IMG/VR virus record: IMGVR_UViG_3300002054_000009
Length of the DNA: 64,000 bases
DNA from: a virus
Reading direction: 5' to 3' (one strand)
A program made the translations under genes and the position numbers. The first letter of the stretch is position 1. Each line of letters opens with the position of its first letter. Below are positions 35,864-61,310 of this stretch, in pieces. The notes below the pieces were generated by a model. That model did not search any database. It was given only the letters and a program-made list of their open reading frames with translations, and was not told where the DNA came from.

Positions 35864-35912
35864 TTTTAGAAAGAATGATTTTAGAAAGAATGATTTTAGA
35901 AAGAATGATTTT
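35864..35912. repeat. 15-bp tandem repeat TTTTAGAAAGAATGA x3
   Basis: Read directly. Confidence 0.9.
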
Positions 35913-36278
35913 CTTCAGATTGTGACATATCTCCCAGTGGTATCCCATCACAAAACAAAACATTCTTAAATTGTCTACCACATCACACCACGATGGCATC
36001 ACAAAAAATAATTCTAATACCTAGACACCATCACAAAGTTACTACAAACATTTCTCTATAGTGTGAACATCATTCCATATCATGAAGAACTACATCACAT
36101 GTTAGATATCATGTTACTGTGTCACATAAATGAATATCCAATTGTGTGATGGATGCACAATGTGAGGAATGTCTCATATGAACTGTGTCACAAAAAAGAA
36201 AGAACTATGTCTCTCTTTTGATTATTGTGGACTGTAGCACAAAAAGAAGATTCCATTCTTCTTTTGTTGATTTGTGAT

Positions 36279-36557
36279 TCAGTACTCATTCCAGAACATT
36301 GAGTAATCATCTTCCATTATTGGGTGATCCATCACAAAATCACCCATCTCTTCGCGCACATTTTCCATTTCTGAGGCTTCATCCACAATCTCGTTAATTG
36401 CCCCGTGATCTATCTCATCATAATTGTGTCTTGTGTGCTCATCCACATAACGATCAACACACCCATTCACAAAACTCGATTCTGTGAAACCATTCACAAA
36501 ATCAAGGACAATTTCACGAACAGCAATAACAAGAGCATCTTGTGATACAGTAGACAT
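36279..36557 (-). CDS. acidic hypothetical cassette protein
   Basis: Own TATAAT promoter near 36595. Confidence 0.65.
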   Translation of the reverse strand: MSTVSQDALVIAVREIVLDFVNGFTESSFVNGCVDRYVDEHTRHNYDEIDHGAINEIVDEASEMENVREEMGDFVMDHPIMEDDYSMFWNEY

Positions 36558-36940
36558 ATTTGAATTCCTGTTTAGGATGAGAGGATGTGTCCATTATACC
36601 GCGCTGCCCGAGAATATTCGTGCTCCCATCACAAATTTGTTCGCAATCGAAAATTATTTTTTGTGATCGAAGTCCGATGATATATTTGTCCCGTTTTTGT
36701 GATCGCGTTCGCAGAACGTACATCTGGGATAAATGTCTCACCGTGCATAGTAGACATTGAGACATTTCTTCCAATAATGCGTTTTGTGTGGTTCATCACA
36801 AAAACGAGACAAATCTCTCAAGGGACTTGCATCACAAAAAATAATTCTGAAAGCTGTGCTTTTTTGTGCGCTATGCACGGACAGGGCCGATAGCTCGGCC
36901 TATAATGGTCACATCTTCTACGCAATCAGGTACACGCAAC

Positions 36941-37189
36941 ATGGCTAACACTGAATCACTGTTCAAAAATCTTGAAGTTCTCACCATGCGTGAGCGCGGT
37001 GACTATAGAGAGTGGTCACTGGATAGTGACGAGGCCACCGTCATAAAGACGGTAAAAGGCGAATACTTTTATGATAGTCTTTTTCATGTATCGGAAGCCC
37101 TGTTGGGTGATGTCCGTAGGACAGTGCCATATGAATTCTTCAGAAGTGAGGATTGTAGTAAACAAAAGTTTGAGATCTTCACAATGTGA
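36941..37189 (+). CDS. hypothetical cassette protein
   Basis: TATAAT 36901; terminator 37198. Confidence 0.65.
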   Translation: MANTESLFKNLEVLTMRERGDYREWSLDSDEATVIKTVKGEYFYDSLFHVSEALLGDVRRTVPYEFFRSEDCSKQKFEIFTM

Positions 37190-37197
37190 TCTAATTC

Positions 37198-37223
37198 AAA
37201 AAAGGGGCTTCGGCCCCTTTTTT
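37198..37223 (+). terminator. intrinsic terminator GGGGC-TTCG-GCCCC-T7
   Basis: Same hairpin at 41304-41325 and 46131-46155. Confidence 0.9.
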
Positions 37224-37686
37224 GTGATCTATTTTTATTTTTGTAGGTTTGAGATATTTCTCACATGTCAAATCAATCACAAAAAATAATGTGAACTTCT
37301 CGCATCGTTTTTTCTTTGTATGCCTTCGAGATAGTTACCCTATACACTGACATCACTCGCACCTATACGGCTCGGTATCGACGCTCAGAGCATCAGGAAA
37401 CGATAGTTTGAACCAACGGCTGACAGTAATCTATAGCTAACAGACCAAAGGATCAACCCACAAGATATTGTGATGGAGTAGACATTACAACATTTCTCAC
37501 ATTGTGATGTAAGTTTGTTGAGACATTTCTCTCAATACCACGTTCTGCGAACGCGATCACAAAAAAGGGACAAATACCTCATCGGACTTCGATCACAAAA
37601 AAATAATTCCAGAACCGATCCTTTTTTGTGACCCAAGCACGGGACATAACCGATCAATCGACCTACAATGGCACCACACCAACGCA

Positions 37687-58439: not shown

Positions 58440-58780
58440 TAGATTTTCTTTAATCGCTCAATAATCACACACTCTTTTGGATCAACGATATTGATCTTCG
58501 CAATAGATTTTACCTGTGGGTACTCTTCTTCTAATGTCGGTTGAACGAACACATCAATGGCGTGAGTCTTATCATCCATATCATAAATCCGCCCACTTCG
58601 CACACCATCAATCGTTCTGAACCAAATTCTCTCCCCACTCTGATACTTACCTGTAGATTCCGGGTCAGGTTCCAAAATAATAGTCTCCCCATACATTTTT
58701 GAAAAATTAAATGCGGTTATCAATCCAAATATCACATATAGAACACTAAGAAAAACCCCGATACCTTCGAGAATACTCAT
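58439..58780 (-). CDS. TM + SH3/KOW-like protein with RLK tail
   Basis: Tail DPKECVIIERLKKI. Confidence 0.65.
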   Translation of the reverse strand: MSILEGIGVFLSVLYVIFGLITAFNFSKMYGETIILEPDPESTGKYQSGERIWFRTIDGVRSGRIYDMDDKTHAIDVFVQPTLEEEYPQVKSIAKINIVDPKECVIIERLKKI

Positions 58781-59004
58781 ATATTTTTCAACCTCTCTAT
58801 CACTTCACACTCACTGGGATTAATAACCATATCAAATCCAACTCTCCAAGCCAATCCATCCACTGTAAGCACATCAAGTGAGTCAGCATTCACCCGCATA
58901 ATCTTAGCATTTATTTTAGTTAACACACCACCCCACGGCTTCAACCATACTCTATCCCCTATGACAAAAATGTATCCATTTTTTGTGAGTGTTTTTATTC
59001 CCAT
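58777..59004 (-). CDS. SH3/KOW-like protein with RLK tail
   Basis: F.IGDRVW; tail NPSECEVIERLKNI. Confidence 0.65.
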   Translation of the reverse strand: MGIKTLTKNGYIFVIGDRVWLKPWGGVLTKINAKIMRVNADSLDVLTVDGLAWRVGFDMVINPSECEVIERLKNI

Positions 59005-59052
59005 TTTACCATCTTATCACATTATGATATACTGAATCCATAGGAGTAAGAT

Positions 59053-59286
59053 ATGAATTTGAAACTTCCACGCAATATCAAAGAGATAGATAAAAAAGAA
59101 TTGATGGATCTTTTATTTTATTATAGACAACAAGCCTATTGGATTGATACACATGACCCAGACCGAAAAATATATTTCATAGCCTATCATATCTTAGAAG
59201 AAAACATAACTAAAGTAAGACTTGAGTTTAATAGGCGACTCTATAAACAAAATATCAAAGAACTAAAGAATAGAACCTATGAATAA
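59053..59286 (+). CDS. RLK-tail family B
   Basis: EFNRR...IKELKNRTYE. Confidence 0.7.
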   Translation: MNLKLPRNIKEIDKKELMDLLFYYRQQAYWIDTHDPDRKIYFIAYHILEENITKVRLEFNRRLYKQNIKELKNRTYE

Positions 59287-59485
59287 AGGAGATATTTTAC
59301 ACTGGGGGGATATAGCAAAAAACTATAGCGATGAAAAATTGCACTTCCGAATTAAGCTCATGTCAAAGAACCATTCCAAAACAAAACTCCAAAAAAAGAT
59401 ATTGAGCATCTACAAAAAAGAATTTAATAGGCGGATAACAAAAACAATCAAAGAACTCAAATCAAGAACCTATTCAAATGACTAA
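59279..59485 (+). CDS. RLK-tail family B
   Basis: EFNRR...IKELKSRTY. Confidence 0.7.
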   Translation: MNKGDILHWGDIAKNYSDEKLHFRIKLMSKNHSKTKLQKKILSIYKKEFNRRITKTIKELKSRTYSND

Positions 59486-59696
59486 TAAACAACAACGACA
59501 ATGGATCAAAACCATATCAAAACATGATGATGTTTATCTAGTAGCAAGAATCAAAGACCTTGAGAATTTAGAAGGTAAGGTATTGTCAAACAATCTCTCT
59601 GGAATACTTGGTCTCTACAGGAAAGAATATAATAAGCGGTTGTTAAAAACAGTCACCAAAACAATCAAAGAACTCAAGAATAGAACCTATGAATAA
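59478..59696 (+). CDS. RLK-tail family B
   Basis: EYNKR...IKELKNRTYE. Confidence 0.7.
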   Translation: MTNKQQRQWIKTISKHDDVYLVARIKDLENLEGKVLSNNLSGILGLYRKEYNKRLLKTVTKTIKELKNRTYE

Positions 59697-59719
59697 AGAA
59701 GATCTCCCAGACATTTTTT

Positions 59720-61310
59720 GATAATGTGACAGAGTTGAACTGTGATATTTCTCACAATGGACTTCTATCACAAAATAAGACATTTTACTTGGGGGTACCC
59801 CCACAAAAAAATTATATTTTATAACTTTTTAATGTCGCTTTCAGAACATAATTAGCAATTCATTGCCGTATTCCTATGGTTTAACCAAAAAAACTGTTCT
59901 AAATGCGACATCTAAAAGTAAGAAATCGAACACTAGATATCTTTACAGTTATTTGTGAACCGGACCCAACAATCTAAGATTATTTTTTGATATAATAAAT
60001 TCAGCTTGTCACGAAACGCTTCAGTGAATAATCCACTCCTGAAAGATCAAAAAATAATGGCCAAAAAAGAATAGTACTATCATTATATCATATAGAGATA
60101 TATAAAACAGAATGATAGATCACAAAACAACTATTTCCCTATAGTGTGAATAGTATCACATAATAAGAAAATAGTTGTTTTGTGATGAAATTGAAATGAG
60201 ACAGTTATCACAGTGTGCAACCATCACAGAACCATTATTTTTTAAGTTAAAAGACGAGTCTTCATTATACCATAAAAAGAATATCAAAACTGTGAAGACT
60301 GTTCCACAATGATTTTTTGACGTTTTTGAGGAATATATCACATAATGAAAAAATAATGGTTCTGTGATGGTGTTAACGATATGAAATAGTGAAACTATGA
60401 CAGGGTTCTTTTTTTGAGTGGTGGCAATGTTAATAGTGTGATGATGTTGGCATTGTTGGTGAGAACTATGTTGGATTTTACAAGATTTTCAAACTGTGAT
60501 GGAGTCGTGAGAAATCATTTTTATACTGTTTTTTGTGATGTTTTTCACATTTTTAACATTTTTATCTTGATTTTTTCGAAACGCCCATTGGTGGATATTG
60601 ACCCCCAAAAAGATAAAAATATAAAATTAATCATTAAATTATCATTAAAACACACCCAAAAATACAATATTTTTTACTATAAAATATCACATTAAAAACA
60701 CCATTAAAAACACCATTAAAAACACCATTAAAAACACCTATTCCTATACACTATTCCACTCCTACACTTATCCTTATTTTCCCTATACACTTTCCTATCA
60801 TTAACACCTATAAAATGATACACTTATCCTTATACTAATCCGTTACATTCTACCACTATCTGTTATACACTATTCTCCTATACACTATTTTCTTTTTGAT
60901 ACTATTAATAAAGGGGTTTTAATACACTTTTTGAATAATAAGATTAATTCCTTGGTAGGTGAAATAAGATACACTTTTTGTGTTTTTAATTCTTGTGTTT
61001 GCCTAAATAAGAGTTATAGATTATTATGAGTTCTTTCTACTCTATATTACTCATAGACGTACTAGATACACTACTACTTCTTATTGAGTTTCGGTTTCTA
61101 ATCTGGTTCGTTTTTCAGGTCAGTTTGTTATACACTTTTTGGTTTATAAGGATGTTTATTTTTGACCTAATATTCCTTATTAAATTGATGCTGAAATGGA
61201 GTGAGAAAATCATGAATTTTCTGACTTAAAACGATGATTAAAAACGGGTCAAAATGCCCTCGAAAAAAGGCACTGAGAATCCACCAAAATAAACCTCAGA
61301 AATCAAGGGT
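59720..61310. other. 1.6-kb AT-rich non-coding region where the two halves of array 2 converge
   Basis: No credible ORF; CRP-like box 59741, GGGGGTACCCCC 59791, ATTAAAAACACC x4 60691-60738, many TACACT motifs. Confidence 0.6.

Follow-up and report, generated by a model that had tools for sequence, protein, structure and literature searches.

Activator sites of class II CRP/FNR promoters are centred at about −41.5, and CRP reads the T-G step of each half-site and hardly reads the spacer. Sites of this type are densely repeated in the DNA analysed here, a 64,000-nucleotide stretch (the window; IMG/VR virus record IMGVR_UViG_3300002054_000009) from a T4-related jumbo phage of ~281 kb. They lie in the variable region of the phage, in an island of about two dozen small accessory-gene cassettes, where the boxes are the inner dyads of a 48-bp lattice of four half-sites. 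As judged from its layout, the array would work like class II activator-dependent promoters housed in cassettes of the PeSL/PmSL type described for T4-type phages; it is not an established member of a CRP regulon.

The likeness to class II CRP promoters (for example Escherichia coli galP1 and melR) and to CRP sites mapped in Vibrio cholerae (PMC6050953) lies in the sequence TGTGA-N6-TCACA with its TGTGAT/ATCACA extension, in the dyad ending 20–21 nt before a good −10, in the lack of a −35 hexamer and in the pairing of one strong with one weak half-site, which is common among natural CRP sites. The V. cholerae study gives 41.5 and 61.5 as CRP promoter positions, and its chromatin immunoprecipitation (ChIP)-defined CRP sites show the same TGTGAT extension and include TGAGA and TCTCA variants; our comparison with them is qualitative and uses no weight matrix. 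Unlike CRP promoters, the phage has a rigid four-half-site lattice whose asymmetric spacer is conserved, lone half-sites that carry T or A tracts and keep fixed positions, and A/T flanks of reversed polarity.

Three phage systems are also close. As in the PeSLs and PmSLs of T4-type phages (Arbiol 2010, PMC2839356; Comeau 2014, PMC4122927), a terminator stem-loop stands upstream of a promoter, a Shine-Dalgarno sequence and a start codon, the repeats fall between small ORFan genes in hyperplastic regions and the modules are reused and mosaic; as in PmSLs, an activator box takes the place of the −35. The phage cassettes differ from PeSLs in having no sigma-70 −35 at a 17-nt spacing from the −10, and from PmSLs in having no TGCTT Mot box at −30 and instead a T-tract-TGTGA half-site at −48 to −44. 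Their control regions, at 150–230 nt, are much longer than either and contain the lattice. The MotA/AsiA middle promoters of T4 (PMC2988021) likewise combine an activator box with a −10, have no −35 and stand ahead of early or accessory genes, but their box lies at −30 and differs in sequence. Finally, T4-like cyanophages carry 1–16 sites for NtcA, the global nitrogen regulator of the host (Sullivan 2010, PMC3037559). Here too a T4-related marine phage has sites for a host-type nutrient-status regulator before many genes, the binder in our case being a candidate only; unlike the NtcA site (GTA-N8-TAC), the site is of CRP type, far denser and part of a repeated composite cassette.

CRP-type half-sites and promoters of the accessory island

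The accessory (hyperplastic) island extends from position 35900 to 60600, consists of stand-alone small-gene cassettes, is ~34% non-coding and contains all of the CRP-type words. Perfect TGTGA-N6-TCACA occurs 11 times in the window where shuffled sequences give 0.21; all copies fall within 36,483–60,549 and none in the first 36 kb. The seven perfect boxes listed in the earlier note (41341, 41369, 42962, 43346, 51846, 54237 and 59741) are all present, and four more are found at 36483, 42859, 60145 and 60534. With up to one mismatch allowed the window holds 42 boxes (3.9 expected), among them those previously listed at 37250, 39042, 39075, 49495 (49494 in our count) and 57306. The fuller island of other assemblies (~32 kb) has 12 perfect and 30 one-mismatch boxes. 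Perfect cores thus number 11–12 in ~25–32 kb, compared with one among the examined rows of the V. cholerae ChIP table (PMC6050953).

The half-sites are constrained in spacing and in location. Among the 109 TGTGA and 105 TCACA words of the island, N6 (11 occurrences) is the sole TGTGA-to-TCACA spacing below 21 that is used, with further peaks at N22 (19) and N38 (14), and direct half-site repeats peak sharply at N11. The two words reach 16.1/kb in island intergenic DNA, against 4.6/kb in island coding DNA and 1.7–2.1/kb in the rest of the window, and 30 of the 38 island boxes are intergenic; the motif is therefore not equally dense in coding DNA. When the 239 TGTGA words of the fuller island are averaged, one partner signal alone emerges, T-C-n-C-A precisely 6 nt downstream; in 131 of the words (55%) the base after TGTGA is T, which extends the half-site to TGTGAT in agreement with the lattice logo. 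Because of this partner and this extension, we take the basic unit to be a 16-bp dyad in which one half is strong and the other weaker. Both the 16-bp dyad TGTGA-N6-TCACA and the extended TGTGAT/ATCACA half-site that mark CRP/CAP sites are thus present, and the data support the sites as real, intergenic and CRP-consensus in core, N6 spacing and extended half-site.

Read from one gene to the next, the repeated intergenic order is terminator, lattice, ATCACAAAAAATAAT, T-tract-TGTGA, TATAAT, a CA-rich leader CCACACCAAC, ribosome-binding site and small gene. The terminator is a G+C-rich hairpin followed by a T-run (24 terminator-like sites, 12 expected). The lattice is placed between this rho-independent terminator and a promoter that has no −35 box, in DNA that is mostly not transcribed. 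The plus-strand control region at 41304–41487 serves as a model: terminator hairpin and T-run at 41304–41325, outer TGTGA at 41325–41329, central box at 41341–41356, a second dyad, TGTGAAATTGATCACA, at 41369–41384, promoter-proximal TGTGA at 41415–41419 and TATAAT at 41451–41456, followed by the conserved CA-rich leader and a gene start at 41488.

The distance between half-site and −10 is fixed. TGTGA is followed by TA[TC][AT]AT after 31 or 32 nt in 11 and 9 cases, respectively, compared with 0–3 at any of the other spacings between 15 and 49. With the first base of the predicted −10 as the reference, TGTGA begins at −36/−37 in ~24 promoters on both strands, and TCACA with an A-tract starts at −69 to −72 in ~15. 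The proximal 16-bp dyad is centred at −40.5/−41.5 if the predicted hexamer is taken as −12 to −7, and 20–21 nt separate it from the −10; these promoter positions rest on predicted −10 hexamers. There is no excess of promoters that have a sigma-70-type −35 (55 versus 67.6 expected), in line with the earlier observation that the cassette promoters have TATAAT but no TTGACA, and the half-site/−10 pairs given with it (39176/39211, 41415/41451, 42573/42610 and 43393/43429) are correct. A site near −41.5, a good −10 and no −35, which together characterize a class II promoter, are therefore found here on predicted −10s, mostly with the upstream consensus half only. The earlier note had placed CRP boxes at the class II activator position; this stands for the TGTGA half-site in about two dozen promoters but not for full dyads, which mostly lie far upstream with centres near −85, −102 and −114. 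Its two examples of boxes near −40.5, 38437 and 40350, do stand 21 nt before a plus-strand TATAAT and serve a minus-strand TATAAT, respectively, but there are only two or three such full dyads. The first is the near-perfect dyad TGTGAGGTAGATCACC with TATAAT 21 nt on (38437–38479, plus strand); the second is TGTGATCGACATCACG, followed after 20 nt by TATAAT (40324–40365, minus strand), upstream of the gene at 40093–40287.

On the plus strand, a promoter without −35 of the form T-tract-TGTGA-N30-TATAAT lies at 39176–39216, and the same design (N30–32) recurs with TGTGA at 37627, 40394, 40988, 41415, 42573, 43393, 44173, 45603, 46447 and 59954 and with TGTTA at 45209, 46839 and 47792. The minus-strand promoter at 49406–49448 has this design as well; others on that strand have the first base of TGTGA, in plus-strand coordinates, at 36633, 50035, 51799, 52194 (TGTTA), 54190, 54591, 55912 and 60124.

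Two further sequence families accompany these promoters. At least 15 cassette promoters have the conserved CA-rich leader (C)CACACCAAC(C/G) 3–8 nt after the −10, for example at 37670–37690, 41457–41475, 43435–43452 and 46881–46898 and, on the minus strand, at 49405–49390; a common 5′ end and a signal for translation or processing are both conceivable. The second family, ATACAC(TTTT), includes the octamer TACACTTT, repeated 6 times in perfect tandem at each of two places (39558–39607 and 57570–57618); many dispersed copies occur in one class of promoters and in the gene-poor DNA at 60.7–61.3 kb (43380–43428, 45106–45250, 46429–46482 and 60760–61160). It may be the site of a second protein.

The 48-bp lattice and the reuse of modules

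Repeat analysis and an alignment of 25 copies show that the boxes do not stand alone but form the inner dyad in a lattice of 48 bp, TGTGA-N11-TGnGA-CATTTC-TCACA-N11-TCACA. In its longer form the aligned element reads TTTTGTGAT-N10-TGnGA-CATTTC-TCACA-N10-ATCACAAAA, with the inner box TG[ACT]GACATTTCTC[AT]CA. All four half-sites are in exact register in 12 copies, and three are present in ~13 more. The lattice amounts to three abutting 16-bp dyads at 16-bp centres. Half-sites and CATTTC spacer carry 1.2–2.4 bits per position, while the N11 spacers are nearly uninformative.

Complete lattices are found on the plus strand at 39059–39106 (central box 39075, with a partial copy, box 39042, directly upstream), 44083–44130 (central box 44099) and 45525–45572 (inner left half degraded to TATGA), and in reverse polarity on the minus strand at 36145–36192 (TGTGA-N11-TGAGA-N6-TCACA-N11-TCACA) and 49013–49060 (box 49029). 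Farther along, plus-strand lattices lie at 49478–49525 (box 49494), upstream of a minus-strand promoter relative to which the spacer is inverted; at 51830–51877, with the perfect inner box 51846, which is intergenic in a fuller assembly (L107) where a terminator comes after the lattice; at 54221–54268, with the perfect inner box 54237, upstream of the minus-strand promoter 54190; at 57290–57337 (box 57306); at 59725–59772 (perfect inner box 59741); and at 60181–60228 (box 60197), with the perfect box 60145 just upstream. The copy at 57455–57502 (box 57471) is on the minus strand and of reverse polarity. Two central boxes, one perfect and forward (42962–42977) and one reverse (42997–43012), stand head to head and share an arm. 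Across the boxes from 36161 to 60197, the asymmetric core GACATTTCTC keeps its forward direction in the minus-strand gene block at 49–54 kb. The spacer varies in a second dyad type, TGTGAnnTnGATCACA, which occurs at 41369, 42099, 43346, 38437 and 40350; the copy at 43346–43361, to which those at 41369 and 42099 are similar, has its centre at about −86 relative to the start predicted for promoter 43429.

A palindromic element between genes might act as a nucleic acid structure rather than as a protein site. Indeed, the element is an imperfect palindrome of 48–54 nt in which GAGA-CATT-TCTC can fold into a small hairpin, and a processing site, an attenuator or a cruciform could be envisaged. The element is, however, placed after terminators and before promoters, it has no Rfam match, and the two N11 arms of the same copy are complementary at 4.24 of 11 positions compared with 4.16 for arms from different copies (permutation p = 0.43). 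We rejected the hairpin reading on these grounds and give it almost no weight. Because arm complementarity is not copy-specific and no Rfam family matches, protein sites are favoured over RNA or DNA hairpins; lattice spacings that stay strict across nearly uninformative N11 spacers also count for protein sites.

It is also conceivable that the repeats are mainly substrates or products of modular shuffling, homology patches in the manner of PeSLs, and that the lattice has no dedicated binder. Modules are reused almost verbatim: positions 41380–41461 and 45568–45649 are 95% identical, 37202–37239 equals 41304–41341, and a 119-nt inverted duplication joins 36657–36775 and 37484–37602. Yet distances between copies are uncorrelated for adjacent segments everywhere (no Mantel correlation for any adjacent pair), and the flanks are fully mosaic. 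The cassettes are thus thoroughly mosaic, as described for PeSLs, with breakpoints that are not focused at the central box, and PeSLs have been proposed as mediators of such shuffling (PMC2839356, PMC4122927). Descent alone, however, fails to explain N6, N11 and N31/32 spacings that are exact to the base pair around randomised intervening bases, and it leaves unexplained why the half-site keeps its distance from the −10 on both strands. Shuffling is in any case compatible with protein binding, and as a sufficient account we consider it improbable. The inverted duplication is one of a control region, 77% complementary between its arms, and includes the dyads TGTGATCGCGTTCGCA and TGCGAACGCGATCACA, whose TCGCA/TGCGA halves resemble CRP-S (Sxy-dependent) half-sites.

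Candidate binders and alternative roles

From the motif with its spacing, position and enrichment and from the absence of a −35, we infer protein binding, activation and a likely binder. A dyad of unequal halves, such as this 16-bp unit, makes a dimeric DNA-binding protein the natural candidate. One such protein of CRP-type specificity would read all of the half-sites. At the promoter-proximal dyad (−40.5/−41.5) the dimer would substitute for the missing −35 contact and activate as a class II activator, and the upstream sites would serve high-affinity anchoring or cooperative loading. The accessory genes probably depend on one CRP-like activator, to judge from the shared promoter geometry. As to its identity, we tentatively favour a CRP-family dimer, most likely host CRP with cyclic AMP (cAMP); the latter would be the most economical binder and would tie about two dozen accessory genes to the carbon status of the host.

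Genes were examined in the window and ~37 kb of left flank, ~100 kb of the ~281-kb genome. The cNMP-binding, HTH_Crp, MotA, AsiA and recombinase families are absent from the Pfam matches listed for the window or recorded for the flank. The earlier suggestion to search for a CRP/FNR-like gene therefore returned none among these matches, in this portion of the genome.

Several observations weigh against a CRP-type binder. The central box fails to show the low-information, two-fold symmetric spacer of a CRP site: its CATTTC spacer is asymmetric and, at 1.2–1.7 bits per position, conserved to the same degree as the half-sites, and the inner left half has no fixed base at its third position (A12/T9/C4). 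The dyads of the lattice, at 16-bp centres, are closer than known tandem CRP sites, and the flanks, T-tract-TGTGA and TCACA-A-tract, are the opposite of the AAATGTGA...TCACATTT consensus. At the class II position itself, the proximal half is (A/T)CCAC-like, with C at position 2 in ~19 of 25 promoters and the second C lost; a good second half is found there only at 38437, 40365 (minus strand) and perhaps 51799 (minus strand). Central-box polarity is 21 forward to 4 reverse in the 25 copies, regardless of promoter strand, and in five minus-strand cassettes the terminator and promoter are turned round while the box between them still reads forward. It is the genome strand, not the promoter, that polarity follows, and CRP leaves both spacer and polarity unexplained. 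A 292-kb relative with a 50% identical topoisomerase has no perfect box, and a sugar-transferase gene, of host type, gave hits of at most 50% identity, to planctomycetes, proteobacteria and firmicutes, which are uninformative on the host. The wiring to CRP put forward in the earlier note is thus supported in part: consensus, N6 spacing and the geometry of the promoter-proximal half-site agree with it, while the conserved asymmetric spacer and the strand polarity are not CRP-like.

A phage-encoded protein unrelated to CRP that reads T-tract-TGTGAT half-sites and the GACATTTCTC core would accommodate many of these departures, the CRP likeness then being coincidence or mimicry. It could be a middle-mode activator, in a role analogous to that of T4 MotA, or a repressor for early-gene shut-off. 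Such a protein fits the conserved asymmetric spacer, the free third base, the abutting 16-bp dyads, the reversed A/T flanks and the many lone half-sites. T4-type PmSLs already pair a −10 with a Mot activator box instead of a −35 (PMC4122927), and the motif is lineage-specific, being absent from the 292-kb relative and from every other contig in our viral and metagenome scans. A chance match to the CRP half-site, the N6 spacing and the TGTGAT extension together is, on the other hand, unlikely, and no DNA-binding domain appears among the Pfam and PHROG matches listed for the window or the Pfam hits recorded for the flank, although small novel binders would escape such searches. We regard an unrelated phage factor as a possibility to be taken seriously, if a rather doubtful one.

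The spacer and polarity can also be read as those of a recombination site, in which an invariant asymmetric spacer of 6 bp is flanked by inverted 5-bp arms, with accessory arms at fixed distance. The central box would then be the crossover site of a phage-borne, site-specific, integron-like cassette exchange. There is about one element per cassette boundary, and 21 of the 25 boxes point the same way whatever the direction of neighbouring genes, as direct-repeat recombination sites would. The arms are merely 5 bp long, however, and the adjacent-segment distances place no focus of mosaic breakpoints at the box. No integrase or resolvase family is among the Pfam matches listed or recorded for the ~100 kb examined. 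Neither a cognate recombinase, within these matches, nor breakpoints at the core, as expected for an integron attC or recombinase core, are found. Joints between public contigs were considered as a sign of cassette excision and dropped, since they lie at repeated promoter parts, have short sides and fit assembly ambiguity. A crossover role for the central box is accordingly very improbable. We think just as little of the broader idea that the lattice goes beyond an activator site, as a cassette-exchange crossover or as a strand-polar signal for replication or recombination superimposed on the promoter architecture. A CRP-family dimer, with host cAMP-CRP foremost, remains the reading that we tentatively prefer.

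Genome context and biological meaning

The same phage is present in several assemblies of an algae-associated (algal-surface) metagenome: JGI 3300002056 AA4_1000021 (280,865 bp), ENA ERZ27298441 k119_108531 (177 kb) and ENA ROTH18 scaffolds. The stretch was matched only in DNA contigs of one algae-metagenome sample. Compared with these assemblies, the window is short by 120–490 nt at ~11 junctions (L107, L112, L113), namely 35897/35913, 39606/39607, 42164/42165, 43091/43092, 48553/48554, 51386–51494, 51878/51879, 57333/57381, 57573/57619, 58236/58237 and 60733–60742. With the absent pieces put back, −10 hexamers and starts of genes reappear after 42164 and 43092, one more complete cassette after 39606 and a terminator after 51878. 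It is probable that the window is a chain of contigs from which repeat-flanked segments were dropped, and these gaps leave the finding unaffected. Contigs in the public assemblies break at repeats, and their joints have short sides; the assemblies that we compared for indels or swaps at the elements are re-assemblies of one population, and their differences resemble assembly gaps at repeats. Perfect short tandem repeats occur at the edges of the island and inside it, at 35864–35912 (a 15-mer, 3.3 copies), 57332–57380 (a 22-mer containing TCACATCACA, 2.2 copies) and 60690–60738 (a 12-mer, 4.1 copies), where other assemblies have N-gaps.

Within its first 17 kb the window has genes for a primase, a split type II topoisomerase, thymidylate synthase, dihydrofolate reductase, PhoH, a ClpP-like protease and Acb1. 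An HNH/homing endonuclease gene (~500 aa, 12663–14198) splits the pair of topoisomerase II subunit genes, and a 172-aa protein at 7298–7816 matches the Pfam family Acb1, an anti-CBASS phosphodiesterase (E ~8e-29). The left flank encodes ribonucleotide reductase, DnaB, DNA polymerase B, a T4 DsbA-like protein and a 3,350-residue protein; the gene for the last (L195:1-8664, ENA k119_108531) lies ~30 kb left of the window, and the protein has no Pfam hit. Genes resembling DUF723 endonucleases and an intein-like insertion flank the polymerase and ribonucleotide reductase genes (L110, L111).

Relatives are distant. The best match to the topoisomerase in the phage collection is ~35% identical and comes from jumbo myoviruses, with no near match to this phage in that collection; two IMG/VR relatives, with topoisomerases 65% and 50% identical, have no perfect box. 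Exact-pattern scans of viral contigs for the element gave single chance hits only, and one metagenome scan gave chance hits and an unrelated satellite-like repeat.

If a CRP-type activator does bind the array, expression of about two dozen accessory genes in a large lytic marine phage hinges on a single signal, in the simplest case the cAMP and carbon status of its host. This would extend the NtcA precedent of cyanophages to phages of heterotrophs and would supply a concrete rule for the timing of expression of ORFan cassettes. Arithmetically, 12 perfect and 30 one-mismatch sites in ~32 kb, multiplied by genome copy number, also mean that a host regulator could conceivably be titrated. As an operator design, the lattice is new and well defined; its geometry is strict and its strand polarity unexplained.

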